A DNA stretch of 64,000 nucleotides from positions 310,001 through 374,000 of the forward strand of contig NW_026250405.1 in the NCBI RefSeq assembly GCF_024521635.1, read 5' to 3'. Each line of letters opens with the position of its first letter. Positions within the stretch are counted from its first letter, which is position 1. The notes beneath the pieces are model-generated. The model was given only the letters and a program-made list of their open reading frames with translations, was not told where the DNA came from and did no database searches. This stretch comes from Tricharina praecox (lineage: Eukaryota). Shown in pieces: positions 2,672-64,000 of the stretch. The translations under genes were made by a program, and so were the position numbers.

Positions 2672-2882
2672 ACTCGGGCTCTGCTATCTCTGCTAGGTGG
2701 AAAGGCCGGAGCATACAAAGGGGAACACTGCCCCACATCCACCCCCTCAAACCCCCTCTCCCCCCACCGAGAATATTCTGCTTGCTCTCTCCCGTTCTCA
2801 TAACTGCTTCCCCTCCCTCCGCATTGAACCGGTTAAATCATAGCCCCCACGGCATTTTCTTCACTTATACACACGGCCCGTG

Positions 2883-7610: not shown

Positions 7611-7614
7611 GCCG

Positions 7615-11920: not shown

Positions 11921-11922
11921 TA

Positions 11923-20760: not shown

Positions 20761-20817
20761 AGATCGAGTGATCAGCGGTGCAACTAATGTGCGACAAACT
20801 GAGCATCTTCTAAAGCT

Positions 20818-22280: not shown

Positions 22281-22489
22281 GAGGGTGGGTTTATATTACT
22301 CAACCATATCAGGGAATATGGGAATCGGCGGATTCTTCCAGTCGTTGAGAAAGCCGATCAGGCCTAGGAATGGTCCGTCCAGTCTGTCCTGGGCCATCCG
22401 CCGCACGGGACCTAATTTATTAGGCCCGGAATATCAAGGACTTACTAGGTGACCGGGCAAGCCAGCGGAGGATCTAAGCCCTGTTGCCG

Positions 22490-23050
22490 AATAGAGAAGA
22501 CAAGTAAGTATTAAGCTAAGCGGACGGGGTGGAGGAGGGAGAGAGGACGTACCGAAACAAGTAAAACACGTCGTCGCTTATTACTGTGCCATTACAGCCA
22601 GTATCCCTAGTGTCGGTTTCTCCCTAGTATCTGTTTCAGACAGTGAAAAATACCTAAAGTCAGCAGCATGAACCATCAAATAGTGGGACGGGAAAGAAGG
22701 AGAAGAAGTTAATGAGTGGAGGGGAGAGGAGAAAGGGAGGAAGAGTTGGGAGGAAAGGTGTGATTTTAGAGGTGAAGCGAGTGCGATTTCACGCAACCAC
22801 AACTAGCGCACTAGCCGCGACTCAAAAGTTTGCTTTTCAGTAGACAACCGCTTCATTCGAAGGTGTCGACACATGTTCGACATCAACGCAATCATTCGAG
22901 TGCCGAGTGAGTGATTATGAACAAGTTCCCACAGCGCGGAATAGCAACAAACGTGCATGCAATTACTGACTAAACAAAAACAAAAAAAAGAATAGCGACA
23001 AACGCGAGCTGGTGGCGAGTACGTCTGTTACTTTCCACATGAAGCCCTCC
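22490..23050 (-). repeat. Promoter module of the modular repeat
   Basis: Reverse complement matches 9590-9680 plus 10560-10970, and 54215-54710. Confidence 0.85.
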
Positions 23051-24074: not shown

Positions 24075-26920
24075 CTACAGGTTTGAGCGTCCACGATCGT
24101 GATTGGGAGATCCTTCACGGGAAGGGCTCCCACCCCTCGAGACGTTGCGGCTGGGGAGCTCGACAACCTTGGGGTCGTACATCTTCGACCTGATGTAGTC
24201 GTCCAACTCCTTGTCCGAGAGGAACTGGAGAAGCTTGTGCCTGTCGACACCCTCCTTCTGGGCTGCGCGGATCACTTCGCGGGCAACGACGACCGAGACT
24301 TCGCGAACCCTCTTGAGCTCGGGGTAGAGATCACCACGCGCAATCTCAGCCTCGTTCAGAGAGGTGGCGAGACCAGCGGCGCTAGCGTAGATCATGCTCT
24401 CCGTGACGTGGGCGGCTTCGCAGAGAATGGTAGCCAATCCGATACCAGGGAAAACGTACACTGGAGAAATGTTAGCATCAAAGTGCATCGGATACACAGA
24501 AGGTGGGGTGCTTACTGTTGTTTCCCTGACCGGGGGATTTCTCGACGCCATCGACAACGACAGAGGGGAAGGGGGATCCAGAAGCGAAGATGACGCGGTT
24601 GTCAGTCCACTTCATGGCCTGCTCGAAAGTGCATTCCGACTTGCTGGAAGGGTTCGAGAGGGGGAAGATGATCGGCTCGGTGTTCAGCTCGGCCATCTTG
24701 CGCACGATCGGCTCGGTGAAGACACCTCCGATTGTGCAGAGTCCAATCAAACAAGTGGGCTTCACATTCTCGACGACTTCTTCCAACGACTTGTATTGCT
24801 TGCCATCGTTGTCTTCGCGAGCGAAATGAATCTTGTGATCGGCCAATGTATCACCGCGATCCTTGGTAACGAGACCGCGTGAGTCGACGAGCCAGAACAT
24901 CTTCTTGGCCTCCTCTTCGGGGATGCCATTGCGAGTGAACAGTCCACAGATCTGCTCGGCGACACCGGTGGCGGCAGAGCCGGCACCCATGAAGACGAGC
25001 TTGTGATCCTTCATGGGGAGGGAGGACCTCTTGAAGGCGCTGATCAGACCGCCGAGAATAACGGCACCGGTTCCCTGGATGTCGTCGTTGAAGACGGTGT
25101 AGGTGTTGCGATACCGCTCAAGGGACCAGAAAGGAGACTTGAAATCCTCAAACTGGATGACGATGCTCCTCCACCTATCGGTGAGGGCGGTCATCATCTC
25201 ATCGAGGAACTCCTTTTGCTCGTCCTCGGAGACACGCTTGTGTCGCGCGCCCATGTACAGGTCGTCCTTCAGGAACTCCTCGTTATTCGTACCGAAATCG
25301 AGGGTGATTGGTAGGGTGCGTTCGGGGTGGATACCGGCGCATCCGACGTAGAGGGCAAGTTTTCCGACGGGGATACCCATGCCGTTCACTCCGAGATCTC
25401 CGAGACCGAGGATACGGGATCCATCAGTGACGACGGCAATCTCGACGAGCTCCTGGGGCCAGTTGGCGACGACGTCCTTGAGGTTTCCCTTGTCCGTGTA
25501 CGACAGATAGAGACCCTCAGGATTCGTGTAGATATGCGACCACTTGAGGCAAGCCTCGCCGACGGTGGGGGTGTACACGTAGGGGGTGAGCTCCTGCAGT
25601 TCGGTTAGCGACCGGACGGACTAAGGCAGAGAAGACGCGAAAGACAAACCTTCATGTGGTCGATGAGGAGGCGGTAGAAAAGACCGGCATTGGTGTTGCG
25701 GAGATTCGACAGGTAGCTGTACTTGTCGATGGCGGTGCTCTTCAGGTTGATTTGCTCCATGCCTATGCGATCAATTAGCTCGAGGTTCTCGGCAGCATTT
25801 CTCGGCATCGAGTCACAGAGTCGGCGGTAGTGAGTGGCCACCGTTCCGAGCCAGGGGTGCCCCGCATAACGCTACGCAACTGGGACATCCGTAGCGACGG
25901 GGAAGACATGTCGGGGAAGACCGCGCACTAGACACAGCCCGCGCCACCTAACGGATTCACTCTCCCGAGACGCGCAATGCTCTGAGACATCCACCAGCGC
26001 TGAGGGAATAACGCTCTCGACGGCGTACGGTGCACGACGACCGGGACTAAGGAAGAGACAAGGTACGGTCGGTGCAACTTACAGCGACGCTCCTGCTTGG
26101 AGAAACCCTCGACGGCCGGAGGCACGAGACCCTGGATGTGCAGAGCCTTGCGAGCGGCCTCGTCGAACGAGGTATCGAAGTCGATAGTCGTTGGGTGAGG
26201 GGACGACGAGCTCGAACCGTCGATCTGGAACTTCATGTGGCTGAAGTCGAAAGACGAGACGCTGTTGGAGGGAACTTCAGTTAGCACGATTTCCGGAACT
26301 CCGCAGTCTGGAGCCATCTGGGCAGTGATTGAATGCAGTGTTGTGTGTGAGAGTAGAATGGAGAGTAGTATGGGGAGCAGTATGGGGAACGATGAAACGC
26401 GGGCGCGGTGTTTAAAAGAAAGAAATGAGGAGGAAGGCAGGAAGCATCGTGACTTGTGACGTGGAGCCGTTCTGCTTCCACCCGCTTCGGCGGGTGGAAG
26501 GTCGGCGAGTACTCGAGGCGGGAAGCACGAGGCGGGTTTCACTCGAACTTCAACATTGAAAAGGGAGCATATGACGTACGCATCATGGTCATCGGTCGAA
26601 GAGGAGCGAGTAGGGATAGTCATTGCGGGTAGTTGACTTGTTTCTGAGGCCTGACCAAGGCAAACGTGTTTCGCTCGTGCGAAAGATGAGAGGGTTCGGC
26701 GGGAGAGAGAGGGCGGCGGGCGAGCAGCAAAGGCAGTGGACGACGGCGGGGAAGCGGTCGACAGGCAGGTGGCGGCGGAGGTGGAGCGTTGGGTGCGAAG
26801 GGCAGCAGCAGCAGGAGTGGAGGGCGGACGACGGAGACTGGTAAGCAATGGCTTGGAGAAGTAGGGAATAGCAGTAGCAGTTGCAGTTGCGGAAGCCGAA
26901 TACAGTCGAGGAGGCAGCAT
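24075..26920 (-). CDS. maeA: Malic enzyme (MaeA-like, probably NADP-dependent) with putative mitochondrial presequence; exons 26920-26580, 26261-26083, 25762-25650, 25593-24516, 24460-24075
   Basis: Motifs VYTPTVGEAC, VTDGSRILGLGDLG, IQFEDF, FNDDIQGTG, GAGSAA, LSNP and GQGNNMYVFPG. All four introns are GT..GCTAAY..AG and keep frame. The start codon (26920 or 26623) is uncertain. Confidence 0.95.
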
Positions 26921-38129: not shown

Positions 38130-38721
38130 GCTTGCACGATGAGGGCTCGGTAGTTATCACGGGGGATTTCTGGTTGATTTACTGGTCAATTCTTCGAGAT
38201 AGCAATTAAAAGGGCGTAGTCTTGATTTGGCTCGAGGTTCTTTGAGATAGTGACGCAGTTCACGATAGTAAAAGTTTTTGTTCAATCGGTAACTGCATGA
38301 GACCTACCGTCTTACGTGGATCATGAAAATATACTCGGCCCGCTTTTCATGTCCACCGTCCAACTCAGTTTTCGTCAAGGGGCACGATGTGGCTTCTCCT
38401 GCCCATGGTCTTTCCCGTAGATATATGTAGAATGCACCAAGAAAATGAAGTTCGGAAAATGAAAGATCCGCTCCTCGCTCCGCCTCGCCTTCTGCCTCTC
38501 CATCAGGATTCAGGGGATGCCATGAAGGAGGGTGTAAGGAGGAATAGTGGGAGTGACGCCAGTTCCTCAACCTCGGCGCCCTCCCCATTTCGACCCCACT
38601 CGACCCCTCTCCGCCTGTTAAAAATCCAGTTCCCTGGGCTCCCGCTCGGGCACCTCAATTGCTGCGTCCTCTCTAGCGATCTCCGGGATCCGCCTGTCTA
38701 CACCAGTACGATAGTAAAAGA

Positions 38722-38775
38722 TTTTTTTTAATCATTGATTAAATGCGACCTATGTAGCTAGATCATGGCGATGTT
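38722..38775 (-). mobile_element. Tiny LINE 3'-tail fragment
   Basis: T-tract followed by ATCATTGATTAAATGCGACCTATGTAGCTAGATCATGGCG, the shared tail motif. Confidence 0.6.
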
Positions 38776-41059: not shown

Positions 41060-43760
41060 AAATTTCTGGTACTAGCGGTGTGGGGGGTAAGGTGCTTGGA
41101 ATCCGACCCGCTACACCTATAACTTCTCTCCTCCGAACCTCTATCCCTCCTTACTACTTAACTGCTATACTCCCAACTCTTCCTCCCTCTCTCCTCCAAC
41201 CATTCAGAAAATCGCTATTCACTCTTTAACCTCTTCATCTCATTCTTTCCCGTCCGGCACTACTTGTTGATTCATACTACTGACTGATTGATTAGTTTTC
41301 ATGGTCCGCTATCGACGCCGAGTTTTATCATTTCAGGTACGTCCTCCCCCCCCCACCTTTTGACTTCCAGGATAACCTTACAGAGCTATCCTGCTCAGCC
41401 GCAGTAGCGAGGAACTGAGGGATCCGTGCAACCGGTCCACAAAGTAAACTGTTGCAAGAGACGGATCGAACCCTCGAGGCTGAGCAGAGAAGATCCAAGG
41501 ACGGGGTTTTCTCTTGTGCTGCCGGCACAAGTTCTTTCCCCCTTCCTCCGGGGGTCCAATTCGGTCAAGACTCGACTTGCCGATTTGCTCCCGTTGGATG
41601 GCCTCGCCGACACCGGGTGACAGCCGGTCTCGTGACGAGGAAGAAAAAAATAAGAAGTATAACTTGGTTACTATCCCCCCCAAGTTATCTGCGGAGGTTT
41701 TCTTCCTTTGCTGTGAGTCTGTGACAGCAAAGGTCTTTCCTCCTGGCCATGTGTGTGTGAGAGACATGCATGGCCAAGGCCAGCTCCCCGAAATCGCGGG
41801 ACAGACGGTTTCGGACGAACAAACAAAAAAACCAAAGAAGTATAACTTGGGCTACTGTCCCCCCTCAAGCCATACGCGTATAACCTGGTTTACTACCCCC
41901 CCAGGTTATACGCGGAGGTTTTCTTCCTTTTAAAAGTCTTTCCTCCGGCCATGCATGTGAAGCATGCATGGTCATTGGCCAAAATGCTGTTGCTCTGGCC
42001 GCTGTGCGAGATTACGACATTGGCTTCTTAAACGACTGCATCCTCGATACACAGCTGCTTCTCGTGTTCCTCCTAGTTCCTAGTTGCTAACTGCGGTTAT
42101 GCGGATAGTTGTTTGCTGACAAACCTCCAGGCCGGAGGCGGCATTGGGAAGACGTCCTACATAGGAAGTACCGGTGGACGTCAACTACGAGTAGTGCAGT
42201 CCGCAGAACACATCCCGAATGTACTACCTATACCGGGAATATATCCTCCGAGTATACCATAATATTTCTTGCTTGGACGGGGCCAGTTGGTGGGAGAGGT
42301 GGGATAGGTGGGTGAACGCCGAAGAATGCACGGCAGCTGGGCAGCGGCGGGATGTCGTTTCTAGTATTCATCATTCGTCATTCATCAGATGGCCAACATG
42401 GACGGTTAATAAACGGCACAGGCACGTAGAAGACGTACAACACAGAGGGCTACCGATATACACGGATGGATCTCGGACGGACACCGAAGCGGTCGACTAA
42501 GTAATACGCTGTCATCTTGCGACACGGCACCCAATGGAAAGACTGCAAGTTACATCCGGGAAGTATACGCAGGCATCGCGCGAGGCTTCCCTGCAGCTGT
42601 CGATAGGTTGCACACCCTCGGCAGAGAAACTTTGCAGACGGCTCTTTTGCTAATATATACCCCTCCAGGCCGGAGGCGGGATCGTGAGGATAGCACACAC
42701 AGAAGAAAAAGGAGATAAAGGTTGATCGTCTATTCTGTAGAGGTTGATCAAAAAAGGAGAAGACGAAGAAGAAGAAGAAGAAGAAGAATAAAGTAAAACC
42801 CCACCGGATCCACACAGTCGACCCCGCCACGGCCGCTAACGGTGATTCCCACCGCTACTAACCACATTGGTTTGCTGCCGCCAATAGGATTCCTCCATTG
42901 CTCCGCCACAATGTCTCCCACACACGGTCAGGTAGAAGGACGTATTTGATGGAACATGGAGTATCCCAATGGGAGCAACGAAACTTCCAAATCGTGGTTG
43001 ACGACTAGGAACCAGGGACACGCCGGGAAGCAGCCGGTGATGCAAGGATGGAGGGGAAGGAGAAAACAACACACCTTCACGCGCGGTCACTCGCCGCATT
43101 AGACAGTACGGCCGAACCAACAAGCAGGCCAAATATCGTTGTATCGCGCAGCGACCAGAGCAACAGCATTTGGCCAATGGCACATGCATCTCACTCGTGC
43201 ATGGCCAGGAGGTAAGACCTTTCAACTTTGAAAGGAAGACGACCTCCGCGTATAACTTGGGGTGGTAGAGGACCAAGTTATACTTCTTTGGTTATTTGAT
43301 CTCATCCGAAACCGTCCGTCGCCCGGTTTCGGAGAGGCGGGCCTTGGCCATGCATGTGACATGTCTCTCACACATGACATGCATGGCCCGGAGGAAAGAA
43401 GGAGAGGAAGTGGTTAAAGACTGAATAGCGATTGTTCTGAATGGGGGGAGGAGAGAGGGAGGAAGAGTCGGGAGGAAAGGAGGATTTTATAGCTGATTGT
43501 GATTCCAAGCAACCAATACTACCGCACTAGCCGCGACTCAAAAGCTAGCTTTTCAGCAAACACCGCTACATTCCAAGTTGTCGACACATGTTTGACATCA
43601 CACGCAGTCATTCGAGCTACGAGTGAGTGAGTATGAACTTGTTCCCACCGCGCGGAATAACGACAAACGCGCAGGTAATTACTGATAAAACAAAAACAAA
43701 AACAAAAAATAGCGATAAAGGTGGGATGGTGGCCAGCACGTTTGCTTTTTTTTCTTGATG
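41060..43760. repeat. Foldback-arranged modular repeat: plus arm (~41060-42120), central module (~42120-42910), minus arm (~42930-43760)
   Basis: The arms contain the same modules in opposite orientation, and each module matches other copies in the window. Confidence 0.85.
42142..42661 (+). mobile_element. Internal LINE fragment (RNase H N-terminal region) flanked by an 18-bp direct repeat
   Basis: LPIYTDGSRTDTEA..YAVILRHGTQWK matches the non-LTR RNase H motif. CCTCCAGGCCGGAGGCGG at 42124-42141 and 42662-42679; a single (empty-site) copy at about 11867. Confidence 0.75.
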
Positions 43761-45802: not shown

Positions 45803-47172
45803 CTAGTATCTGGTGTACAGAGACCTCCTGCGGAAGGGGAGGCTGGGGAGCGTGGAGTTACCAGCGAGTCCCTCGGCGCCATTGTAGGCCAAGTTGTCGA
45901 TAGTGTCCAGACCAGGGTTGGTGACGATACCGGCGATCGACAGTGCCTTCATGCGCTTGACAACGGCGGCCGGGGAATCGAGACCCTCGAGAGAGATGAG
46001 GTAAGCAGCGAGTCCGACGATGTGAGGGCAGGCCATCGAGGTACCGGAAATGGTGTTAGTCGCGGTGGTGCTGCCGATCCAGGCCGACTCGATGTCGGTG
46101 CCGGGGGCGAAGATGTCAACGCTGGCACCGAAGTTGGAGTACACGGCACGGCTGTCATCGGGATCGGTGGCACCAACGGTGATGGCGGTAGAGACGGAGG
46201 CTGGGGATGAGTCGGCGGCATCGGCGTTCTCGTTACCGGCAGCAACACCGAAGGTAATACCGGATTCGATGGCGGCGCCGACAACCTCGTTCAAAGCAGC
46301 AGAGAAAGTTCCTCCCAGAGACATGTTGGCGACGGCCTTGCCGCCCCTCTTGGAGGCATCCTCGGCAACCCATTGGACACCGGCGATGACACCAGAGTTG
46401 GTACCAGATCCATCGTCACCGAGAACCTTGACCGCGACGATGGTCGCCTTCTTGGCAACACCGAAAGTCTTTCCGGCGATGGTGCCAGCAACGTGAGTGC
46501 CGTGGCCCTGGCCGTCCTCGTCGGATCCACCAGCAGTGTTGGTGCCGAACTCAGCGCGGCCCTCGAATTCCTTGTGATCGATGTTCACACCAGTGTCGAT
46601 GACATAAGCGGTGACGCCTTCTCCCGCAGAGGAGTCGTACACGTAGGAGGTGGTGGAGCTGTTGTCGCTGGCGGATGCGGACTCATGCGAGATACGTGCA
46701 ATTCCCCAGGGGGCTCTGCGCTGTTCCACCAAGTTGTAGGCAACCACGACCTTGTCTTCCTCGACCATCTTGACGTCATCCCTTGCTTTGATCTGGTTTC
46801 AGTTAGTAAAGTGTCACTATCTGAATATGAACCCTGAGGGGGAGTATTAACCTCTTCGATCGTGACCGAGTCGAAAGCTCCGGAATATCCCGTGAGCTTT
46901 CCGAAGTGGTAGTTGTACTTGATACCGGTCAAGCTTGTGTCGTCACGGCGGGTGAGACGTCTATGATGGAGACTGGTAGCCCAGACCTTGTGCTCCTCGA
47001 ACTGAGTAGCCGTGACCTCGTCCTTCAGGATAATGATGTAGTTGTCCTGCACGATCGAACCGGCCTTGATGGTGAAATCGCCGGTGGAAAGAGGAGCTAT
47101 GGGAGCTGGCAGGGCAGCGACGAACGGGAGAATGGCCGCAGCCACGGCGATGATGGAACGGAAAGAAACCAT
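45803..47172 (-). CDS. Secreted subtilisin-like serine protease (S8A, proteinase K type, I9 propeptide); exons 47172-46852, 46792-45803
   Basis: Signal peptide. Catalytic motifs VIDTG, GHGTHVAGT and SGTSMACPH, plus NMSLGG and AAGNE. Intron GTTAAT..ACTAAC..CAG at 46851-46793. Confidence 0.96.
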
Positions 47173-50100
47173 TGTGGGAATGGACGGTTGGAGTGGTTAT
47201 AAAGGAAGGAATATAGCAGTAGTGTAAAGATGGAAGAGAAGAGAAAGGCTGGCTTTCTGCTACTTTAAAAAAGAGTGAAGTTCTGTGGTACTACTGCTGC
47301 TGCCGTGAAAGATTGTGTGAGGATCCAGATCCCGAACGCTGTACTGTGCTGTGCTGGTTGTGTTGTGTGATGAAAAGAAGCATAATCATGTCGTGGGGCC
47401 GGCAATGCTTTATAGCATTGCAGTTCTCCTGTGCTCGCAGAATGTTGTATGTAGTGGAAGTGAGGCATCGAACGCGTTGATGGGCCAGTCAGTCAACCTA
47501 CCAGACCCCCGGCGCTTTCACCAACACGGCTCGACCCGGCGGTTCATGCCATACGCCATAGGCTCATACAGGTCTATCATATCATCAGGAGTCTAAAAAG
47601 CAACGTGCCGCGAGGGAAGGTCGACGGCGAGAACTGCACATGCAAAGCCTTCAGGATGCAAGGGCCGAAATTAGCATGGGAGTGAACTTTAACCCGAAAC
47701 TTGGACTGTGTCTTCAGTCTGGGGCGGGGAGGTACACGATTGGTATCGATAAATCTCCCCGGTGATTAAGGAAAGTTTCCCCCCATGTATGTACGTACCG
47801 GCTAGCTTCTGCCGCCGCCGATCAGTCTGCGGGCCCATCTAGAGCTTGAGGTGGACCTACAACGAGAGTCCGCGGATTGCTGCCGGTACAGATGTACCTA
47901 TGTGCTCGCGAACATACCTGTATCGTATGTAGCAGGTGGCTTCCCTCCTGTCTTGTGATTGAAGTAACGGAGGATGATATATCAGCACCTCAAGGGGCGA
48001 TCCCCGCGCGTTTTTCCATCAAGCGGGTGCTAGTGTTCAAGGTAATTCTCCGAGCTGGGTGCATGTGTTGGTTGGCGGGAGCATATGTCGAATTCCCCAC
48101 TCTCCGGATCCTGACGTTTAATTTGATGCCCTATCCTATCCTTCGCCACGATTTCTACCCGCGCGAACGCCACGACGTTGCTGTCGAAGGAAAGAGGCCC
48201 AATAGGCGCGGGCATTTGCTGGGTTGTTTTGGTCGAAGCTTTGACGGGGCCAATCGCAGCGCGTCATGCCCTGTCGATCATTGGTGGATGCATGTCAGCA
48301 GGGGGATGACTGGGTTAGCGCTAGCGGCCATCCCCGCGACACCTCAGACAGCCAGACGCTTTACGTTTCGCATTCGCCCCCTCCCCCTCTTCATCAACAG
48401 CATCCGAACAACCATCGAATGGTTACTCACGCCGGGCTCTGCGGGGTTCGTACCGACGGATACCGTCCCTATGTGAAGTTAAGTCCTGGAGGCCTTAGAG
48501 GAGGCCGCAGAACGAAGCTAAGTGGCCAGACGATCACAGGCGAGCGCTTTTTGGAAACCGACCTGGAACTCCAGCTTACAGGATTATCCCGTTACTTCCA
48601 ACGACGAAGTATTTCTGCCAAAGAATGCAGTTGTTTGGGAACGTTCAAAGCGAGAATGTGGGGGATATGCCGTATGTAGCTATCCACCTTGCGGCGCACC
48701 TCCATGGATGCAGCAAAAATACAAGGGGGGGATTTTTGCGTTGAAGGCTGAGTCTCGCACTCCAGAGTCCAACGAACTAGGTACAATACATTGCGATAAG
48801 CATTTCTAATCTGGTTGCATCCAACCGTATGTATCATACGCATTCGATCGGAATCACTCGAAGGCGGCGTTGCGCACTGACTACATACCGTAGTACATTC
48901 GGGGCATTGCATTGCTAACACCGAGTAGCCGCTAAAAGGGCGCACGCATGAGATGCGACCAGGCGGCGGCGACAACATCCACCGCCACCGCTACCCGCAA
49001 CTCGAAGGCTGCGAGCCTCGGGGCATGCCTTCCTCCTCACACCACGGCCGCTAGCTTCTCCCAGTAGAGAAGGTGGGGCCCCGTTGGGCTCGGGATTCGC
49101 AGTTCAAATTTCTGGTCTTGGCGGGCAGTGGAAGTACTACCTAGTAGCAGAGCAAGGTAGTGAAAGTGCTAACAGAGAAAGGCCATTATATACAGCTTGA
49201 AGATCCCCGGCCTCTTTTTGGGCTGATAGTTTGCTCAGTCTCCCTGGAGACCTACTGCAAGGCTGTGAAAGTGACCATCGGCCGTGAATCTTGGATCTCA
49301 TGGGGGCTCACTAGGCTAGATATCTCGAAATGCACGCCTGCTGGAGGTACTTACATACCCACTGTATGTACAATACATGCGACTGTCAATTACCCAGTAG
49401 GTAAAGAGGACTGATTCGGGCATCGGATATATATCTGCGATGTTCTCAGTCCCGCGAGCGCGAGGATCGAGGCAACGAAGCATCCCTGGAAGACTGTGGT
49501 GGCGACTCTGGGCACGCTAAGCCACCCGGGGGGCGCAGCACATCATAAGAAGTCACTCGCATACGTTTCTACGGGAGTCGAAATCATTCATATGCGGCCG
49601 ATTCCTGGCTCGATTGAAGCAGGGGAGATCCGAGGAGCTTGCGCAGGTGGTGGAATAGTATAAGAGCGAGTCTTGGAGCTTTTTTTTGAGTCTGCCACCA
49701 TTGTGCGCGTTTCTTGGTGAACCAACCTATATCTTGTATCCCCAGGTGAAAAGTGAGTCGCTGCCTCGAACTTGTTCCCCAGATGGCAGACACAATAGGA
49801 ATACGTAGCACGACCTATATAGATTGCACGTAATATGAGTCAACAGGCGAATTTTGCACTCACCCGAGAAACTTCTGCTCTTTGATTTTAAATCTACTTA
49901 AAATAGCCGCAACCCCAGATTCTTCTTCCATCCTGCTTTCACCACACAACATATCTCATGCCAAGCAACTCTGGTTATCGAGACACCCTATGTATGACGG
50001 TAAAAGGTCAGAAACCCGTCACGGTAAAGCACAGCATGTGCATTTCCCTCGCTCCCTCAGAACGGAAGCTTACACGGGTGATCGATATCAGGCCTGTAGA

Positions 50101-53100
50101 CGACGGCCGCGGCGTTTTTGCAGAAGCAGTTGATGGCCGCTATCTCTTGGACCAGTCGCTCGCACTTCCGTGCCTCATTCGTGCCCGGCGACAGGAAGAG
50201 TTCGCAGACACTCCGTGCGGCGGGAGTGCGGTCGCGGCTGCAAGACCGTTTCTCCAATGTAGGCTTCGTGTCGTCAGCATTTCGGTATTTTCCGCGCCGG
50301 AATATGCCTCGCGGGATAACTCACCGACGCCTGAGCGGCGAGGACGGCCGAGAGAAGCATGGTCATGGTCCAGGATGATCGCATGGTGAACCTGTCTCGG
50401 AGATGGTTTTGGACTTTGACGGGTGGTGCTGATTCAAGTTGTCTGTGCGGTTTAGTTCGAGATGGAGACCTGACAAGAACGCTTTATATCTGCTCAAGAT
50501 GACATCTCATGACGACTGTTTCACTCTCCGTGCTATGCGACTCGAAAGGCACGCTCAGTTCAGAGATCCTGGAAGAATTTTCTGTGTAAATGAGCGAGAC
50601 TTTCCACCGACGGGTCAGTTTCGTGGACACCGAGAAAGCGGATCCGGAGGACAGACGTTGTGATACCTGTCTCGCTTACCAAGGCGCAATGCATAATCCC
50701 GACAATCGTCCGCACAGAAAACGGTTTTCCGAACTTTCGTCCCGGAATAGTCGAAGAATCGAACATTGTCGCACGCACTGTACAAAGCACTGTTGGGCAA
50801 ATCTCGCCTCTTCGAAGCAACAGAGGTGGGTATCACTACGTCGAGAGCTGGGATTCTGCATAACGGCCACACTCAAGTGTTGCACGTCGGTTGGTGTAGC
50901 TTTATACAATCTCGTTGAATTCGCTGTCTAAAGGCTAACTTTCTAGTATCCCCGCCCTTACCGGCCCATGCGAAGTTGAAGTCCTGTGGCTCTTGGAGCA
51001 TTTCAACAAACGCTCGACTACTTAGATAACAAGTAGTTTTTGGCACCAGTCTCTACCCCTGCATCCTTCCCACATTACGCAGCACGAGTTCACGTTCTCC
51101 ACCCCAAGCACCCAATGTATGTACTGCTTCCTCGGGCAAGACATACAGAAGACAACCTCGCAACCCACACAAAGAAACGGAAATTCCAAAGAACAGCAAG
51201 ACTTACCAATTAGCCCACCATTCCGGTATTGTTCCACGAGTGTCCAGTATGGTCGGGCAGAATGAAGGCGGATACACAGGGCCAGTTCAACGGTAACATT
51301 CGCTACATGTTACTCCGTTTTTCCTGGTCCTGCAAGTCTCCGCTCGCTCACTCATTCCTTGGATGGAGGTCTTGCGGGTTCACCCGTTCCCGTTTGGGTG
51401 GTTTTCGACGCCGGCCTGTGCGCGGTGGCCGTGGTTCCTGGTCGTTAAAAGGGTCTGGTACAAGAAATTTTTCATCCCCCGCCGTCCCGAATTGGGTAGA
51501 TGCCGCTACGTTGGGGGTAGAGTCCCCCGTACGGTGGTGCAAGCCCTCAGTTTCCATGCCGGTTTTGTGATTGTGTGGCAGATTTTGTGATTGTGTGGCA
51601 GGTTTCGGGAGAGCTTGTATGTACCGTTCGCAGTTTTCAGTGTTGGAATTTCGTCGGACTGGCGAGATGAGATGATGGTTTGGGTCAACGCTGGAGACTG
51701 CTGCTTATAAACATTTTTTTAGGGCGTAAATCTTTCAACTTCATGGCTGTGCTTGAAGGATCGAGTTGAAACTTTATGGCGGGATCGCAATTTGATTGAT
51801 CATTGAACGATGGTCTTTGCGGTGACTGTAGTTTTAAAGGAAGTTCGGTTTTTTCTTCTACACTTGAAGAAAACTGACCTTAGCATATTGGGAAGTTGAT
51901 TTGTTGGAGGTGTTTGCGACGAAGAATTGCTCCCACAAGATCCGGTGAGCTCTATGAGTACTAATAATTCGATTTTATAGATTAGCGGAAAGTCACTTGT
52001 GGGGGCGGGGGTGGAATCCGTTGTTCTATGACTGGTGATTTCAAGTTTGTTGGCCGGCCAACAAAACATCTCACCATGTATTTGAACGAGATCGGGCCAT
52101 TTGTCGTGTACAGGCTGACGGAGCCGCACTTGGATGAGCACACAAATAGCAAGTTTGGCCGGAATTTTAAAAGTCTTCCTTTTGCGGTCCATCTTACATA
52201 AGGCTCACCCGCACATATGCTGTCTAGATCGGAACGACGGAACCATCTGCGGAACGATGCAGCATCTAGCATAAGGTGTGCAGCTTCTATTCTTGTCGCG
52301 GCACCATTTCTGATTAGATCAAGAATCAGCATATCCTCTATCGCCGGTGCGGCTTCAGATTCCCGTCAGAGAGCGCACTGCTTTTTTGTGGGATGCATTA
52401 GCAATATGTAGCAATGAGTCTGTGTAGTAGTCCATGTGATGTGTTCACTCCGCAGCTACCGCGGTCCGCAACATCCGTTGCCGCACGCTTCCGCCGCGTT
52501 GCTAAAAATAGCGTCGCTGGTAGCCGGAGCTGACAACCAGATCCCCGCCGTCGGCCGCCGGCTAGGATGTACCCTACCCAACGTCCCGAACATGGCATTC
52601 TCCGGCTGAATACATGCGCAGTCATCGCCGTTGAATACCCTCCGACATCAACCGCACCCCGCCTACGCTGATGACATCACAACATCAGGTTTAAACTTCC
52701 GTGACGATCCGGCGCGGAAGGCTTGTCGGAAAGGCGGGCCCGATTTCGTTAGGGCGACAGGGCTGTAAGTGTATCACAGGGCCCTCGCGATCGTGGAGAT
52801 ACCTCGATGAGGAAAAATCAGCGTAGAATCTCCGCATACTCGCATACTAAGCTGCGGAACTCCCGGATGCGGATGTCACTTCATTGTGCCGAAGCCCGAC
52901 AATGGAATGTGCTGAAGACCAGATGGAAAGCGGTATAAATGAAACGATAGGTACCTCGATGAATAATACCTCACTCACATCCAACAACACAACAAGAACA
53001 GCATCTCGAGCTCATCATCCAACCTTATCAACATCCTCATTCCATCCGATCCAATCTAATAAAACCTCCTCACTCAACCAACCACTCCTCATTCAAAAAA

Positions 53101-53116
53101 CCACTCCAAAGCCAAA

Positions 53117-53548
53117 ATGCAGTTCACCTCCGCCCTCCTCTTCTTCGCCTCGACCTTCGCCGTCGCCTCGGCCGGTACCCCCGCCTCGGTCCGCTACGAT
53201 ACCACCTATGACACGTCCTCGCAGTCGACTCTCACGCTGGCCTGCTCCGACGGCGCCAACGGGCTGTACACTAAGGGCTACGAGACTCTCGGCGAGCTGC
53301 CCAGTTTCCCGAACGTCGGCGCGGCGGCGGTGATCACCGGCTGGAACTCGGCGCAGTGCGGAACGTGCTTCAAGCTGTACTACCAGGGCAAGACCGTCTA
53401 CATCACCGGCGTCGACGTGGCCAGCGGTGGCACCGGGTTCGTCCTCAGCAGGGCCGCCATGAACACTCTGACCGGCGGCCTGGCTACCCAGGTGGGAACC
53501 GTCACTGCGGATTATGCGCAGGTTGCGTCCTCTTTCTGCGGCTTGTAA
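53117..53548 (+). CDS. Cerato-platanin family secreted protein (SnodProt1/Sm1-like)
   Basis: Signal peptide, VRYDTTYD, LACSDGANGL, GWNSAQCGTC, AMNTLTGG and C-terminal CGL; four Cys. TATAAA at about 52934. Confidence 0.97.
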   Translation: MQFTSALLFFASTFAVASAGTPASVRYDTTYDTSSQSTLTLACSDGANGLYTKGYETLGELPSFPNVGAAAVITGWNSAQCGTCFKLYYQGKTVYITGVDVASGGTGFVLSRAAMNTLTGGLATQVGTVTADYAQVASSFCGL

Positions 53549-53726
53549 TCGGTCGTCGGTGGGACTGTGTATATTTTTCGGCGGGAGCGGAAGGCGCGGA
53601 GGCGGGGTAGAAGGGCTTGTATACAGACGGAAGAAGGCGGGGTCATGGCAGGGGGATGAGCATATGGGATTTAATTCTGTAATTATGATTGAACATAAAT
53701 TAATGTACGACATTGCAATTGTATTC

Positions 53727-53846
53727 GGTTTGTTTGTTTACTCATTGATTGTATGCGACGCATCTACATATGAAATCGTGTTCGGTTTTGTGTTGTTTGA
53801 TGATTAGTTGCATGCGAACCTCCTACCTAGATCGATCATGGCAATA
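53727..53846 (-). mobile_element. Two tiny LINE 3'-tail fragments
   Basis: TCATTGATTGTATGCGAC and TTGCATGCGAACC..CTAGATCGATCATGGCAATA match the tail motif. Confidence 0.55.
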
Positions 53847-54214: not shown

Positions 54215-56045
54215 TAACGTGCTGGCCACCATATCACGTTTGTCGCTATTCTTTTTTTTTTTTTTTTGGGGGGGGGGGGGGGGGAGGGGGGGTTTATTGT
54301 TTAATCAGTAACTGCTGGTACGTTTGTCGCTACATTTTGTTTTGATAATTCTTTGCGCATTTCTAGCTATTCCTCGCTGTGGGAATCTGTTCATTGGTGC
54401 TCACTCGGACGTCGAGTGACGTTGTTTGATGTCAAATATCTGTCAACACCTTGGAATGTAGCAGTGTTTGCTGCAAAACAAACTTTTGAGTCGAGGCTAG
54501 TGCGCTAGAAGTGGTTGCTTGGAATTCCACCAACTCCTATAAAACCCACCTTTCCTCCGAACTCTTCCTCCCTTTCTCCTTCCTCTCTCCATTCATAAAC
54601 GTCTTCTCCTTCTTTCCCGTCCGACATTAATTGGTGATTCATGCTACTGACCTAGATTAGTTTAATTGTTTTCCACGGTCCGCCACCAACGATAGGGATA
54701 CTGGCAGTAATGCTACCTTCCTTCCTTCCTTCCTTCCACCTAGGCTCGAGCTCAAACCTGGAGGTAAGTCCTTCTCTCACCCCACTTTTGACTTCCAGGA
54801 TAACCTTACAGAGCTATCCTGCTCAGCCGTAGCAGCGAAGAACCGAGGGATCCGTGTAACCGGTCTACATAGACTGTTGCAAGAGACAGATCCAACCCTC
54901 GCGGCTGAGTAGAAAAGATCTACGGACGGGGTTTTCTCTTCTGCTGCCGGCGAAGTTCTTTCCCCCTTCCTCCGGGAGTCCAAGTCGGGTGAGAGCCGAC
55001 TTGCTCCCGGTGGATGGCCTCTCCGGAACCGGGTGACAGACGGTTTCGTGTTGACGAGGAAAAAAAAAACAAAGAAAGTATAACTTCCGAGTTATACGCG
55101 TATAACCTGGTTTACTATCCCCCCAGGTTATACGCGGAGGTTTTCTTCCTTTGCTGTGAGAGAGCAAAGGTCTTTCCTCCTGGCCATGTATGTCATGTGT
55201 GACAGACATGCCACATGCGTGGCCCACGGCCCATGCCTCCGAAACTGGGCTACAGACGGTTTCGGACGAGCAAATAAATAACTAAAGAAGTATAACTTGG
55301 TCTACTACCGCCCCAAGTTATACGCGTATAACGTGGTTTACTACCTATCCCCCCATGTTATACGCGGAGGTCGTCTTCCTTTCAGAGCAAAGGTTTTACC
55401 TCCTGGCCTTGCATGAGTGAGATGCATGTGCCATTGGCCAAATGTTGTTCCTCTGGCCGCTGTGCGAGAGAAGAACATTTGACTTGGTGCGCGAGTTGTT
55501 TTGAGGCGGGGTAGCAGTGGGCGTACGGGGTGTGGCAAGCGTGCATGCTCGCTGGAGTACTATATCTTCCCCGACAGCTGGCGCATCTTTCGGCGTTGAG
55601 GACGGTGCGGTTTCCATCTCGATCTCGGTCGCTGCTCCCGTTGATGCTGTCGTTTTGTGTTTAATATCACTCGCATACAGCAAATCTAGACAACCTACTA
55701 GTATGGTCATTAGCGACAACCTCGTCTCCCATGCCCTCCGTCTGGGTAAAACGGATGACAGAGTTCGTACCCACGAAGAAAACATCAAAGAACCGCTTTT
55801 CACACGTCCCCGCCTATTCATCTCAACCTCCTCTCCCTATCCATCTCGGAAGCCCTCAGCGCCATATTTTCCCTTTCCCCATGTTTCGAGGGATGATGGA
55901 TGGCCTTCTGAGATCCCTTGCCGGTCTATCGCTATTCAGATTGAAGTAAGTATCACCATTCCCTCGCTAATTTTCTCTTTTTTTTATCGTATATTCATTC
56001 ATGCCGAGTGCGAATACATAAAGCTTCCCCGTGCACCCCCGTCAA
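54215..56045 (+). repeat. Modular dispersed repeat, long copy (promoter, hairpin core, distal module)
   Basis: Matches 10560-10870, the reverse complement of 19240-20410, and 9000-9510. Confidence 0.9.
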
Positions 56046-56429: not shown

Positions 56430-56487
56430 TTCGCCATAGTCTAGATAGGCCGCATGCGAAATAAAACAGGAAGATCTCTCTCTCTCG
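56430..56487 (+). mobile_element. Tiny retroposon 3' end with AATAAA and (TC)n tail
   Basis: CGCCATAGTCTAGATAGGCCGCATGCGAAATAAAACAGGAAGATCTCTCTCTCTC; the reverse complement occurs at 4985-5055. Confidence 0.65.
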
Positions 56488-61119: not shown

Positions 61120-62770
61120 AATTCATTTCCTCCCTCCTGTCACCGACAGCTCTCCCATCGCTCCGCCACACCGACTATGAACCAGGGACAAGGGAAGTAG
61201 CCGTGGATCGAGAGTGCAGTCAATTAAGCCGATACACCGTACTCGACGCAGAATGATCGCAAACTTTCGGAGAAGATTTAGTTCTCCGTCGAGTACGCAG
61301 ATTTGCCACTTCGTACGCCCAGTGCTACCGCGCCTAGCAGCAACCAACCCGCGAACTCAGTCAATGTCGTTCTCTCGCGCGGCGGCCAGAGGAACAACAT
61401 TTGGCCGATGGCACATGCATGCCTGACCTGCATGCATGGCCAGAGGCAAGACCTGTCAACTTTGAAAGGAAGAAAACCTCCACGTATAACATGGGGGGGT
61501 AGTAGGCCAAATTATACTTCTTTGGTTATTTGATCTCATCCAAAACCGTCCGTCGCCCGGTTTCGGAGAGGTGGGCCTTGGCCATGCATGTGGCATGTCT
61601 CTCACACATGACATGCATGGCCAGGAGGAAAGACCTTTGCTGTCACAGACTCACAGCAAAGGAAGAAAACCTCCGCATATAACTTGGGGGAATGGTAACC
61701 AAGTTATACTTCTTATTTTTTTCTTCCTCGTCACGAGACCGGCTGTCACCCGGTGTCGGCGAGGCCATCCACCGGGAGCAAGTCGGCAAGTCGAGTCTTG
61801 ACCGACGTGAACTCCCGGAGGAAGGGGGAAAGAATTTGTGCCGGCAGCACAAGAGAAAACCCCGTCCGTAGATCTTTTCTGCTAAGCCTGGAGGGTTGGA
61901 TCCGTCTCTTGCAACAGTGTGCTTTGTAACCAGTTGCACGGATCCCTCAGTTCCTCGCTGCTGCGGCTGAGCAGGATAGCTCTGTAAGGTTATCCTGGAA
62001 GTATAAAGTTGGGGGGAGAGAGAACGACGTACCTTGACGATTGAGCTCGGGCTTAGGTGGAAGGAAGGAGGGTGGATGGGTGGGCGGGTGGGGGGAAAGG
62101 AAGGAGGTAAGGAGGCTGGAAAGGAATGATCGATGGAGGGTGGGAAGGAAGGAAGAAAAGATGAATAGCCGAGGAGGAAAGGAAGCTGTGATGGTTGTAA
62201 AGAGAAGGAGAGAAGGAGGATCAGATGGCGGGTGGTTTTATAGGTGGTTTGGGGCGGCTAGTTTACATTCAGTTTCGCCGCCGCCAGACGGCTAGACCCC
62301 ACCAAAACTTGCTCGTCACTTGGAACGATCGAGAAAACGTGACGCAAATCGTTGGTGACGGGGTGGAAGTGTCGCCAGGCCGCTAGAACCGCACCAAAAC
62401 ATGCTCATCAGATGGATCGAGCGAGAAAATTTGACCCGCTGATCGCTGGAGACGGGTTAATCACCTCGCGCGCCGAACGTGTCACTGGTTCGGCTCTTCA
62501 AAGTTCAAACCGCCCAGTGCCCACTGCAGGTGCTCGCCGCGCACAAAGGCAATGTCGTTCTCTCACACAGCGGCCAGAGCAACAACACTTGACCTATGGC
62601 TATGAATACCTCACATGCATGGCCAAGAGGAAAGGCTTTTCAACTTTGAAAGAAAGAAGACCTCCGCGTACCTATAACATGGGGGTTTAGTAGGCCATGT
62701 TATGCGCGTATAGCTTGGGCCGGTAATAGACCAAGTTATACTCCTTTGTTTTTGTTGTTCTCGTCCGTAA
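61120..62770 (-). repeat. Modular dispersed repeat, minus-strand copy plus an extra subunit at 62540-62770
   Basis: Reverse complement of 61590-62090 is near-identical to 11000-11510 and 41360-41790. Confidence 0.92.
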
Positions 62771-64000
62771 CGTGAACTGTAACTTTAGCTTAAGAGGGTT
62801 CGCGAAGTCTCAGTCGTCGTCGCTCGCGAAGTGATGCGCGTTCACGGCGGCGTGCGAGTGGAAGTAGGTATGTAGGTGGAACGAAGACGTCATTTAGGTT
62901 GCCGACTGTATGTGAAGGTACCATCATCCCATCACTAATGGTCTCCTATGTTGGAATACATGTTCTCGGCTTTTAAAACCACCTCTTCACATAAAATCAC
63001 CCGCCGATGTCGCGAGTGAGTTACTATGAATGCGTGCTTCGTATGGCTGTTTCTTCATATGTCACTCGACTGTGGCTGCCATCGTATCGTTCATTTATTC
63101 CATAGTGGTTTAAAGCTGTGGACTCGCCAAAAATCTTCTAGACACTGCACTCATTTGTGCGTACGCAGTCACGCGACTGTGAACATTTACTCCAAGTAGA
63201 TAAGTATCTGCATTTTCTGCGGTGTAGTTGCAACAGAAGCAAGTCAAGCCAACGAGATTCGACATTGCGTAAAACAGCAATTTCATATCTATCATGATTC
63301 CATGCCACTTCCCTCAGTATTTAAGACTCATCATACACTCCAAAGTTCCATATCCACTGGTCGCTCGCTACCACGAACTTCGTGGAGAACTATCAGATGG
63401 TAGGCATCCGAGTGCATGTTGGTGAATCATATCGATTGCCATTTGCGGCGCATCATTGGGGACCTACTGAACCTAGCTACGTATAAGGACGGACGTCCCA
63501 TGATTATAAGTGATAATAAGGAGCGATTGTGAACGGGACAAGGAAGAAGGGAATGCTACGCATAGTGGGGGGATCGAGTCCTTTGGTTATTGAGTCCAAA
63601 CAGTCGTTCCGAGGACTATTGTATTATATTCTCCGGTTAGACTTGAAGCAGTTCACTCGTTGAAAATCCGAAAAAATAGTTTCGAGAGGGAAGAATAAAG
63701 CTGCTTCGCTCGTGCGCGTCAGATCCGTCTTCATCCCCAACGTGGTCGCCGCGATATCTTGAACCGCGCGACTCTTCAGCGTACGGTACATGCCACTTAC
63801 GCACATAGTGGGGTCAACACACAATGAAATCAACCCCACATTAAACGCGACCAGAAAGCCGTCTACCTAGAATATGCGCGACACGGACGCTGAGCTGACG
63901 CTTCAGTCGCTGCGGAACTCCAGAGTTTTCGTTGCCGCATTTGCGGCCGCGTTATCCGGGATAAGTGCCCCACCTAGGAATCATACCAGAAAACGTACCT

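Follow-up and report, generated by a model that had tools for sequence, protein, structure and literature searches.

The window analysed here, 64,000 nucleotides (64 kb) from a Pezizales-like fungus, contains about 12 copies of a repeat family in both orientations. The hairpins at 55078-55445, to which the initial annotation had drawn attention, belong to two "units" of one copy (copy B, about 54354-55481, forward strand throughout) within this much larger repeat. Copy B begins with an upstream module (54354-54546) that aligns across 7 copies, ends in the TATA-like motif CCTATAAAACC (54536-54546) and, in a self-comparison, resembles 10560-10869, 22943-22646 and 43659-43438. The CT-rich leader that follows (54547-54798, from the alignment of copies) is closed by a 35-nt intron-like piece, GTAAGT...TTCCAG (54764-54798), whose putative splice signals were recognised by eye. 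The adjoining "head" of about 225 nt (54799-55022), located by its start motif and consensus fold, is built of nested hairpins, including GCTCAGCC/GGCTGAGC, GGATCCGT/ACGGATCC, CAAGTCGG/CCGACTTG and others; the start motif CTTCCAGGATAACCTTACAGAGCTAT has six occurrences, with 0 expected.

Hairpin listing and folding delimited unit 1 (55023-55234) and unit 2 (55239-55440) of copy B. Unit 1 is composed of a CCGGAAC hairpin (55023-55049) followed by an A-rich run, a short GTATAACT/AGTTATAC hairpin (55078-55097), a 14-bp GTATAAC hairpin (55097-55136), a GGAGG/CCTTTGCT hairpin (55136-55180) and a TGGCCATG hairpin (55181-55224). Unit 2 starts with a CCGAAAC hairpin (55239-55265) and an A-rich run, and continues with a GTATAAC hairpin at 55290-55323, another at 55323-55366 that contains G.T, a GGAGG/CCTTT hairpin (55366-55403) and a TGGCCTTGCATG hairpin (55404-55433). 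The tail hairpin CAAATGTTGTTC ... GAAGAACATTTG lies at 55439-55481, and the tail motif AATGTTGTTGCTCTGGCCGCTG is common to 13 places in the window. A generic unit of the family, 165-230 nt in length, combines a CCGAAAC hairpin and an A-rich run with GTATAAC hairpins (one or two, their loops rich in C), a GGAGG/CCTTTGCTG hairpin and a TGGCCATGCATG hairpin. In its full form, seen in five copies, the repeat strings together 10-14 different stem-loops after a common TATA-like, CT-rich leader, and nearly the whole of it is stem-loop.

These five full copies (A-E) show 84-94% pairwise identity by BLAST and alignment. Two units each are present in copies A (10560-11884, forward strand), C (41215-42141, forward) and D (61235-62344, reverse). 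Copies A and C are 94% identical over 701 aligned bases of the body, and their upstream modules are far more diverged. An inverted-repeat transposon of 436 bp (19410-19845), with terminal inverted repeats of about 40 bp, splits copy E (reverse strand) into a 5' part with the upstream module, head, unit 1 and start of unit 2 (19846-20671) and a 3' part with the remainder of unit 2 and the tail (19206-19409). Internal deletions mark copies F and G, both on the reverse strand: F (21950-22957) retains its upstream module, 19 nt from the start of the head, one unit without the third hairpin, and the tail, and in G (43050-43741) the upstream module and leader are fused to the end of unit 1, with unit 2 and the tail coming after it. 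Copies H, I and J are truncated at the 5' end, 3' parts being common to all. H (62537-62771, reverse strand, directly upstream of copy D) and J (8866-9050, forward) each consist of one unit and the tail; I (7043-7330, forward), the most diverged copy, has one unit, the tail and a downstream module. Copies I and J are sisters from a tandem duplication (6399-7200 versus 8252-9031, 85% identity). Degenerate units, in which the GTATAAC stem is broken (GAAGTATCGTG.../...CCAAGTTCTATC), recur about every 265 nt over 12740-13300 (forward), and others of the same type lie at 18980-19200 (reverse).

A TATA-like motif with 0-2 mismatches was located on the sense strand 190-490 nt 5' of the head in copies A, B, D, E and F. 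Copy G, which has no head, also carries one, giving six of the seven copies with an upstream module. The splice-like GTACGT/GTAAGT...CAG signals are kept in A-E and bound a putative intron of 35-38 nt. The upstream and downstream modules each exist in at least two types, and homology between copies fades without sharp ends. The copies are intergenic, measure 0.7-1.3 kb and lie outside coding exons. Since the copies are strongly clustered in the window and some are mosaic (unit 1 of D resembles A/C, unit 2 of D resembles G), segmental duplication with gene conversion fits their distribution as well as transposition does. A scan of public metagenome contigs returned 61 loci, 0/61 of which had any of five other family motifs and which mostly represented an unrelated SINE-like repeat; all statistics given here therefore rest on the one 64-kb window.

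A sequence check located every stem that had been quoted: GTATAACTTGG/CCAAGTTATAC at 55290-55323, GTATAACCTGG/CCAGGTTATAC at 55100-55133, GTATAACGTGG/CCATGTTATAC at 55326-55363, GTACAACTTGG/CCAAGTTGTAC at 7055-7084, GTATAACTTGG/CCAAGTTGTAC at 8878-8907, CCTTTGCTG/CAGCAAAGG within GGAGG/CCTCC at 8922-8945 and 11431-11459, and TGGCCATGCATGT/ACATGCATGGCCA at 11470-11502. The true length of the stem preceding GGAGG is 14 bp (CGCGTATAACCTGG/CCAGGTTATACGCG). The flagged motifs are not due to chance: when at most 2 mismatches were allowed, GTATAACTTGG had 53 matches, compared with 10.98 +/- 3.34 in shuffled sequences (53 reached in 0/100 shuffles), and the 21-mer GGAGGTTTTCTTCCTTTGCTG, with at most 3 mismatches, had 8 matches, with 0 expected. 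The loops had been described as varying, which is true of the length of the poly-C run; however, the GTATAAC-hairpin loops are homologous and do not vary freely. Their design is T(C/T)TACTAC plus poly-C, and the main difference among 20 instances is a poly-C length of 4-23 nt. In the same 20 hairpins, 196 of 220 cells were Watson-Crick pairs, 12 were G.T, 7 were A.C and 5 were other combinations. The G.T cells were thus accompanied by A.C cells.

Hairpin potential in the units is kept beyond chance, as supported by several measures. Pairing was retained in 94.6% of 627 cells. Both sides had changed in 6/53 pairs, a number equalled in 2/500 shuffles, and there were 13 compensated cells, reached in 0/500 shuffles; most of these cells come from few events, the pair at alignment columns 105/135 contributing 7/13 and copy I contributing 5 pairs. 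All 15 units had more Watson-Crick pairs than the divergence of their own unpaired columns predicts, at P<0.05 in 13/15, and copy I, despite the greatest divergence, retained 33/36 Watson-Crick pairs with 5 compensated. Divergence from the majority sequence was 7.9% (101/1274) in stem columns, 18.0% (190/1055) in unpaired columns and 16.8% in linkers, the family-wide unpaired values being partly inflated by loops and linkers that are harder to align. Uncompensated mispairs amounted to 57 events as against 6 compensated pairs. The head yielded a consensus fold with 64 pairs, 3 of them changed on both sides, and its covariation term of +3.68 gives no covariation support. Of the proposed selected structure on the TATA-sense strand, the preserved hairpin potential was accordingly borne out, but its assignment to an RNA of that strand was not.

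The assignment to RNA had rested on G.T pairs as intermediates, for which a comparison of A-C with G-T counts had been suggested as a check. As an A.C mispair on one strand is a G.T pair on the other, both have to be counted. The units contained 32 G.T and 13 A.C cells (25 versus 13 events) and the head 6 G.T versus 4 A.C events, making 31 versus 17 events for units and head together; a hand count of the GTATAAC hairpin alone gave about 8 versus 7 events. A.C mispairs are therefore common, and the same sense-strand bias is found in unpaired columns, where C>T and A>G exceed G>A and T>C. These columns predict a G.T share of 0.63, and the share seen was 0.65-0.66 (p=0.87-0.88). The G.T excess is explained by the background substitution spectrum and would be no sign of RNA. 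It follows for genome scans that G.T-only examples chosen by eye are no evidence of RNA, and that G.T counts need to be weighed against A.C mispairs and the substitution bias of unpaired positions.

On either strand, folding is far stronger than in shuffled sequences, as RNA and as DNA. The 672-nt body of copy B reached -275.1 kcal/mol with a z-score of -9.6, compared with -6.4 for the antisense strand, and the values as DNA were -10.5 (sense) and -8.5 (antisense). The sense strand was more stable in 13/20 segments, and the alifold energy of the units was -32.7 in sense versus -18.5 in antisense, whereas the head displayed no sense preference (-58.4 versus -59.8). Perfect palindromes without a loop also occur, namely CTGCGATCGCAG in I and J and CTTTTAAAAG in C2. 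Nothing in the analysis shows the hairpins to work as RNA. The more specific suggestions are unlikely as well: the stems of 5-14 bp speak against a small-RNA precursor processed by Dicer, and arm spacings of 4-23 nt in 20 GTATAAC instances speak against a protein-binding array of fixed geometry.

To compare close relatives, we used 8 sister pairs with 113 differences, including I-J, A-C, B-E and D2-G2. Stems differed at 53/779 positions (6.8%) and the remaining sequence at 60/682 (8.8%), a stem deficit that is not significant (ratio 0.77, Fisher p=0.17); the family-wide 0.44x constraint would predict 30 stem differences in these pairs (P=7e-5). In the deeper pair A-B, stems differed by 4.7% and other positions by 15.5% (p=0.012). 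Stems are thus kept, and at times compensated, between sub-families, and close copies differ nearly equally in stems and elsewhere, which makes the family a compact case for distinguishing structure needed in propagation from structure needed in place. Repeat-induced point mutation (RIP) as a source of paired C>T and G>A changes was rejected, as the transition/transversion ratio is about 1-2, the GC content is 0.51-0.53, and A>G and T>C match C>T in frequency; the paired changes are therefore no RIP products. In Pyronema confluens, a sequenced member of the Pezizales, RIP is minor and affects 0.46% of the genome (PMC3778014).

The repeat is non-coding. Frames differ among the copies, and the indel lengths are not divisible by three (judged by eye), and ORFs within the copies matched no Pfam family, which led us to discard a coding or small-ORF reading. 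Rfam 15 returned 0 families at gathering score in the whole window; with an E-value threshold, 54300-55700 gave 3 matches only (E 3-4.6), far under the gathering scores. Of the 129 window ORFs of at least 110 aa, 0 had a transposase or reverse-transcriptase match, which leaves the 64 kb with no visible autonomous partner. An inverted-repeat search of copy B with its flanks (54300-55700) found no terminal pair; what it detected were local hairpins and weak pairings over longer distances, with 74-81% complementarity. ARAGORN found 0 tRNA genes, and neither ARAGORN nor Rfam identified a Pol III-type head (tRNA, 5S or 7SL) anywhere in the window. The A-rich runs are internal, and no terminal A-tail or simple-repeat tail was seen. 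No feature supported a tRNA-derived SINE. A solo-LTR or LTR origin was discarded as well, given that the self-comparison revealed no TG...CA ends or direct pairs and the 129 ORFs no gag, pol or reverse transcriptase. A Helitron CTRR motif was not evident by eye 3' of the tail hairpin in the copies read, whose ends are ill-defined, and no other feature supported a Helitron. Duplexes of about 20 bp or more as in miRNA precursors were absent, all stems having 5-14 bp, and sites for dimeric transcription factors were considered and set aside in view of the arm spacing of 4-23 nt. None of the hallmarks of standard transposons that were tested was found. A B-box-like GGATCCAACCC was noticed by eye.

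We tentatively interpret the hairpins at 55078-55445 as a tandem pair of units within one copy of an interspersed repeat that is modular and non-coding and spreads as a non-autonomous copy-and-paste element, an explanation that is possible though short of probable. A full copy would run from a promoter-like upstream module, which has the TATA-like motif, through the CT-rich leader with the intron-like piece, the head and one or two units to the tail hairpin. The element would be mobile or otherwise duplicative, and its palindromic arms may be needed in a single-stranded form (ssDNA or RNA) of the source copies, so that lineages leaving descendants would keep their stems. Resident copies would then drift nearly neutrally, and the G.T "intermediates" would be ordinary transitions of a strand-biased substitution spectrum. 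The finding that sister stems diverge almost like the rest fits such a copy-and-decay element, with source copies requiring the hairpins, and fits resident functional RNAs poorly. The TATA-like motif, the CT-rich leader and the splice-like signals of full copies speak against a mobile element and would be in keeping with a gene family. In general form, the initial annotation's reading amounts to a set of Pol II-transcribed non-coding RNA genes, in which the RNA of each copy folds into 10-14 stem-loops under selection on the sense strand. It appears doubtful to us, albeit with a real chance of being correct. Such genes would account for the sense-strand TATA-like motif in 6/7 copies, the splice-like signals kept in A-E and the covariation above shuffles, and likewise for the somewhat better folding of the sense strand (z -9.6 versus -6.4; 13/20 segments; units -32.7 versus -18.5). 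Conversion or selection limited to a transcribed part would fit the 94% identity of the A and C bodies next to far more diverged upstream sequence, and transcription could cause the substitution bias relative to element orientation. However, the G.T excess equals the unpaired-column bias (p=0.87), the head has no sense preference and a positive covariation term, and sister-copy stems are under no measurable constraint. Moreover, truncations, deletions or disruptions affect many copies, unit and hairpin numbers vary, the loop-less palindromes CTGCGATCGCAG and CTTTTAAAAG could not form as such in RNA, the TATA-like motif is 190-490 nt away from the conserved body, and the putative intron of 35-38 nt is very short.

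The loop-less palindromes would be expected if the copies were function-free relics, i.e. old duplicated intergenic DNA in which quasi-palindrome correction and shared ancestry mimic covariation; the correction would proceed by DNA-level template switching or arm-against-arm repair. Both strands folding about equally as DNA (z -10.5 and -8.5), strand-specific mispairs no higher than background, the few events behind most compensated cells and near-neutral recent divergence are also in line with relics. We nevertheless consider them unlikely, as correction alone would let the arm sequence drift, yet stem sequence is conserved (7.9% versus 16.8-18%), and the 57 uncompensated mispair events far exceed the 6 compensated pairs. 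In addition, the both-side-changed count was reached by only 2/500 shuffles, in a measure rarely exceeded by unconstrained related sequences. A cis element acting as double-stranded DNA (a palindromic protein-binding array, an insulator or a replication origin) would agree with the conserved sequence of the palindromic arms, with A-rich runs adjoining the hairpins and with the CCG...CGG-type inverted triplets of the CCGAAAC hairpin, which presumably resemble zinc-cluster sites. It is very unlikely, and so is a Dicer-type precursor: the GTATAAC arm spacing of 4-23 nt is hard to match with a fixed dimer geometry, the convergent copies C and G have no gene in the about 900 bp between them, so that the element does not consistently lie in front of a gene, and stems of 5-14 bp are too short for Dicer-like duplexes.

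Several known systems share features with the copy-and-paste element that we favour. MITEs and foldback-type non-autonomous DNA transposons are short, non-coding, multi-copy, intergenic and structure-rich, and their copies decay after insertion. All of this applies to the present repeat, but it has no terminal inverted repeats that could be found and carries 10-14 local hairpins instead of a single long foldback; the genuine inverted-repeat transposon inside copy E looks quite different. Fungal SINEs such as Mg-SINE of Magnaporthe are non-coding, dispersed, often 5'-truncated sequences of a few hundred bases with A-rich runs. The present repeat is similarly non-coding and dispersed, with A-rich runs and 5'-truncated copies sharing 3' parts; however, no tRNA-, 5S- or 7SL-like head was detected, it does not end in a poly(A) or simple-repeat tail, and the upstream TATA-like module of its full copies should be missing from a retroposed transcript. 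Introner-like elements and the internally symmetrical stwintrons of fungi (for the latter, PMC8469720) resemble the repeat in being multiplied, in their strong predicted secondary structure and in their splice-site-like motifs, but the present copies of 0.7-1.3 kb lie between genes and their splice-like signals bound only the 5'-side piece of 35-38 nt. Full-text literature searches on fungal, Pezizales and Pyronema repeats yielded no description of such an element, and we regard it as a likely undescribed, hairpin-rich, non-autonomous repeat.

Bacterial REP/BIME sequences are mosaics of distinct palindromic units in variable number, intergenic and in both orientations. By analogy only, the present repeat is likewise a palindromic-unit mosaic with variable unit number and with stems kept and occasionally compensated; it differs in its eukaryotic host, its far longer units and the lack of a RAYT- or HUH-type gene among the 129 window ORFs. 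It is conceivable, though distinctly unlikely, that the family is a eukaryotic counterpart of such bacterial mosaic palindromic elements, its distinct hairpin units being copied via a single-stranded intermediate and its stems recognised by a trans-acting enzyme or RNA-binding factor. If so, it would represent a type of mobile element that has neither terminal inverted repeats nor LTRs nor a poly(A) tail, and whose footprints would be an element-oriented substitution bias and stem constraint between sub-families only.

The summed contig depth in the DNA run X1 was about 200 over 54814-55215 and about 7 in the flanks, a rough figure that does not give a copy number. In the runs X3 and X4, which are only guessed to be RNA, contigs covered the cerato-platanin gene at a depth of about 1800-3256. 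The X3/X4 contigs on the repeat, which give no strand, ends or level, had a depth of 1-14 and 4-24 differences, and with that many differences they come from other copies.

One modular hairpin repeat occurs in about 12 copies in the window, on both strands, as determined by self-comparison and alignments. Copies I (7043-7330), J (8866-9050), A (10560-11884), C (41215-42141) and B, the flagged feature (54354-55481), were located on the plus strand, and copies E (19206-19409 with 19846-20671), F (21950-22957), G (43050-43741), D (61235-62344) and H (62537-62771) on the minus strand; degenerate units were found at 12740-13300 and 18980-19200. Every count on the repeat derives from this single 64-kb window. 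In their own orientation, the full copies (A to E) start with an upstream module that has a TATA-like CCTATAAAACC at its end; this motif is present with 0 to 2 mismatches in six of the seven copies having this module. Next come a CT-rich leader, whose length varies, and a piece of 35-38 nt bounded by splice-like signals (GTACGT or GTAAGT ... TTCCAG); these precede a head of ~225 nt beginning with GATAACCTTACAGAGCTATCC (6 matches of this start motif vs. 0 expected) and two units. Each unit comprises a CCGAAAC...GTTTCGG hairpin, an A-rich run, one or two GTATAAC hairpins, a GGAGG/CCTTTGCTG hairpin and a TGGCCATGCATG hairpin, and the stem of the hairpin adjoining GGAGG measures 14 bp. The tail, AATGTTGTTGCTCTGGCCGCTG..., is itself a hairpin and is found 13 times in the window; stem-loops make up nearly the entire body of the repeat. 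On the plus strand, the leaders of copies E and D, CT-rich in their own orientation, show as purine-rich tandem stretches of the AAGGAAGGAGGG type at 20432-20516 and 62053-62165, respectively.

All stems quoted in the initial annotation were present where it had placed them. GTATAACTTGG gave 53 matches with at most 2 mismatches, against 10.98 ± 3.34 in shuffled sequences, none of 100 shuffles reaching 53, and the 21-mer GGAGGTTTTCTTCCTTTGCTG gave 8 with at most 3 mismatches, against 0. In the DNA sequencing run X1, whose contigs were placed on the window, the summed contig depth was ~200 over the repeat and ~7 in the flanks, which points roughly to a multi-copy family and gives no copy number. 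None of the 61 loci from a metagenome scan for extra copies was relevant.

Several copies are incomplete: H, I and J are truncated, and F and G are internally deleted. Copy D is a mosaic, its unit 1 resembling those of A and C and its unit 2 that of G. The stretches 6156-7200 and 7957-9031 form a ~1.8 kb tandem duplication, 85% identical over 817 bases. Copies I and J lie within it and are therefore products of segmental duplication and not of separate insertion. Copy E is interrupted at 19410-19845 by a 436-bp element with terminal inverted repeats of ~40 bp, inserted at TA/GTA within a GTATAAC hairpin; TGGACA..GCCCGTTTTACAC marks its inner ends (19430-19450, +; 19804-19824, -). Copy A is adjoined at ~11922-12170 by a sequence related, with divergence, to both the end and the internal palindrome (TTTTGTATGGGGC.CCATACAAAA) of this element.

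To assess the conservation of pairing, 15 units were aligned over 270 columns, and a structure of 53 pairs in eight helices was written from the hairpins in unit 2 of copy B and unit 1 of copy A. Pairing was kept beyond chance: 94.6% of 627 cells (one pair in one unit) were paired, compared with 92.7 ± 0.3% in shuffles (0 of 500 as high), 13 cells were compensated (shuffle mean 3.5, 0 of 500), and six of the 53 pairs had changed on both sides (mean 2.4, 2 of 500). Compensated cells mostly trace to few events, and columns 105/135 supply seven of the 13. These columns, stem position 8 of the GTATAAC hairpin, hold T-A (7 units), C-G (4) and G.T (2), with A-T and T.T in one unit each. The claim in the initial annotation that loops vary holds for the GTATAAC hairpin mostly as a difference in poly-C length (4-23 nt); the loops themselves are homologous, T(C/T)TACTAC followed by poly-C. 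Slid-partner controls paired at 26-49%, a weak control, as the structure was derived from the same sequences. Divergence from the column majority was 7.9% in stem columns (101/1274) and 18.0% in unpaired columns (190/1055; linkers 16.8%, terminal loops 19.9%). Watson-Crick pairs exceeded the prediction from a unit's own unpaired divergence in all 15 units (P < 0.05 in 13), and the most diverged, in copy I, retains 33 of 36 pairs as Watson-Crick, five of them compensated. By eye, the variant third hairpin of copy I is partly shared with the degenerate unit near 19100. The stems of the head are also conserved, yet covariation there found no support (3 of 64 pairs changed on both sides, covariation term +3.68).

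The initial annotation had taken G.T intermediates to favour an RNA (or ssDNA) structure on the sense strand, read from the TATA-like motif. The 20 GTATAAC hairpins hold 12 G.T, 7 A.C and 5 other cells, or by hand count ~8 G.T and ~7 A.C events. All unit helices together hold 32 G.T, 13 A.C and 21 other cells, corresponding to 25, 13 and 19 events, and the head 6 G.T and 4 A.C events; A.C mismatches are thus common, and the comparison meant to reveal the strand does not single one out (G.T vs. A.C against 1:1, p = 0.07 for units, 0.06 with the head). Unpaired columns show a sense-strand bias, with C>T 24 vs. G>A 8 and A>G 30 vs. T>C 18, as do linkers alone (12 vs. 6 and 19 vs. 8). Applied to stem composition, the unpaired spectrum puts the expected G.T share at 0.63, which matches the observed 0.65-0.66 (p = 0.87-0.88). 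The G.T excess is therefore a product of the background spectrum and no sign of selection for RNA pairing. The bias follows the element's own orientation though copies occupy both chromosomal strands; it may stem from transcription or from a single-stranded intermediate, the numbers being small and the cells not independent. Predicted folding indicates little strand preference. The body of copy B (672 nt) folds as RNA at -275.1 kcal/mol on the sense strand (z -9.6; antisense z -6.4), and its unit part (465 nt) as DNA at -100 kcal/mol (z -10.5; antisense z -8.5). The sense strand was more stable in 13 of 20 segments, by a mean difference of 2.4 kcal/mol. Alifold gave -32.7 (sense) vs. -18.5 (antisense) for units, a difference that counts the same G.T cells twice over, and -58.4 vs. 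-59.8 for the head. Loop-less perfect palindrome cores, CTGCGATCGCAG in copies I and J and CTTTTAAAAG in unit 2 of copy C, make sense as DNA and not as RNA hairpins.

Six sister unit pairs differed at 42/523 stem and 45/492 other positions; with two sister head pairs added, the values were 53/779 (6.8%) and 60/682 (8.8%; Fisher 0.17). Stems evolving at the family-wide 0.44x rate should have given 30 differences in these pooled pairs (P = 7e-5). In the head of the deeper pair A-B, stems differed at 4.7% and other positions at 15.5% (p = 0.012). Stems are thus near neutral between recent sisters and conserved between sub-families, a comparison that involves few pairs, possible gene conversion and the easier alignment of close pairs. 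Such a pattern is expected where the lineages that spawn copies depend on their stems and the resident copies degenerate, and runs counter to expectation for a family in which every resident copy works as an RNA gene or regulatory site.

Arm-against-arm correction of DNA does not explain the pairing alone, since it leaves the conservation of stem sequence unaccounted for and faces 57 uncompensated mispair events vs. six compensated pairs. The two functions proposed in the initial annotation fit poorly: a spacing of 4-23 nt clashes with the fixed geometry of protein sites in a binding array, and stems of 5-14 bp are unsuited as Dicer substrates for a small-RNA precursor. A non-autonomous copy-and-paste repeat is a tentative reading, which we place slightly short of an even chance. 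Its source copies would pass through a single-stranded intermediate (RNA or ssDNA) in which the hairpins act; lineages that spawn copies would retain their stems, and resident copies would decay. A Pol II non-coding RNA family is a serious rival, given the TATA-like motif, signals resembling splice sites and a substitution bias that follows the element's orientation. RIP was excluded for the repeat in the window (compare PMC3778014).

The repeat lacks terminal inverted repeats, the hallmark of MITEs, does not show the tested hallmarks of tRNA-type SINEs or LTRs, and matches no Rfam family. Bacterial REP/BIME elements are mosaics of palindromic units, and offer the nearest functional analogy. 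No description of such an element was found in the part of the full-text literature that was searched.

A Pfam search of the 129 stop-to-stop ORFs of at least 110 aa in the window identified five genes, encoding a ZIP transporter (3065-4351, +), GPR1/FUN34 (17764-18442, +), malic enzyme (24078-25620, -), a subtilase with I9 propeptide (45806-47196, -) and a cerato-platanin (53063-53545, coding 53117-53545, +), and no transposase or reverse transcriptase among these ORFs. The window lacks tRNAs, and no Rfam family reaches its gathering score there. Cerato-platanins are a fungal family, and the closest named relatives of this one are Pezizales (Sphaerosporella brunnea, 71%, then Rhizina, Kalaharituber, Choiromyces and Morchella), so the window comes from the nuclear genome of a Pezizales-like ascomycete. 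In two runs guessed to be RNA, single contigs matching without any difference span this gene (52998-53841). A long homopolymer junction, a T-run then a G-run, lies at 54252-54290, directly upstream of the upstream module of copy B (TTTTTTTTGGGGGGGG at 54260-54275, longer on both sides). In X1, the summed contig depth at 56430-56486 was ~1270, compared with ~7 on either side; a (CT)n run closes this stretch, which may represent a short repeat of high copy number or an effect of low complexity. Two dispersed short repeats, CCCCCGTTTCCACGCCACT... (6194-6259, 7683-7748, 7992-8057, 20886-20951, 38339-38404) and TTTTGTTCA.TCATT.ATTGCATG.GACCTA... (7614-7661, 7924-7971, 20817-20864, 38276-38323, 38722-38769, 53732-53838), are frequently adjacent to each other and bear no relation to the hairpin units.
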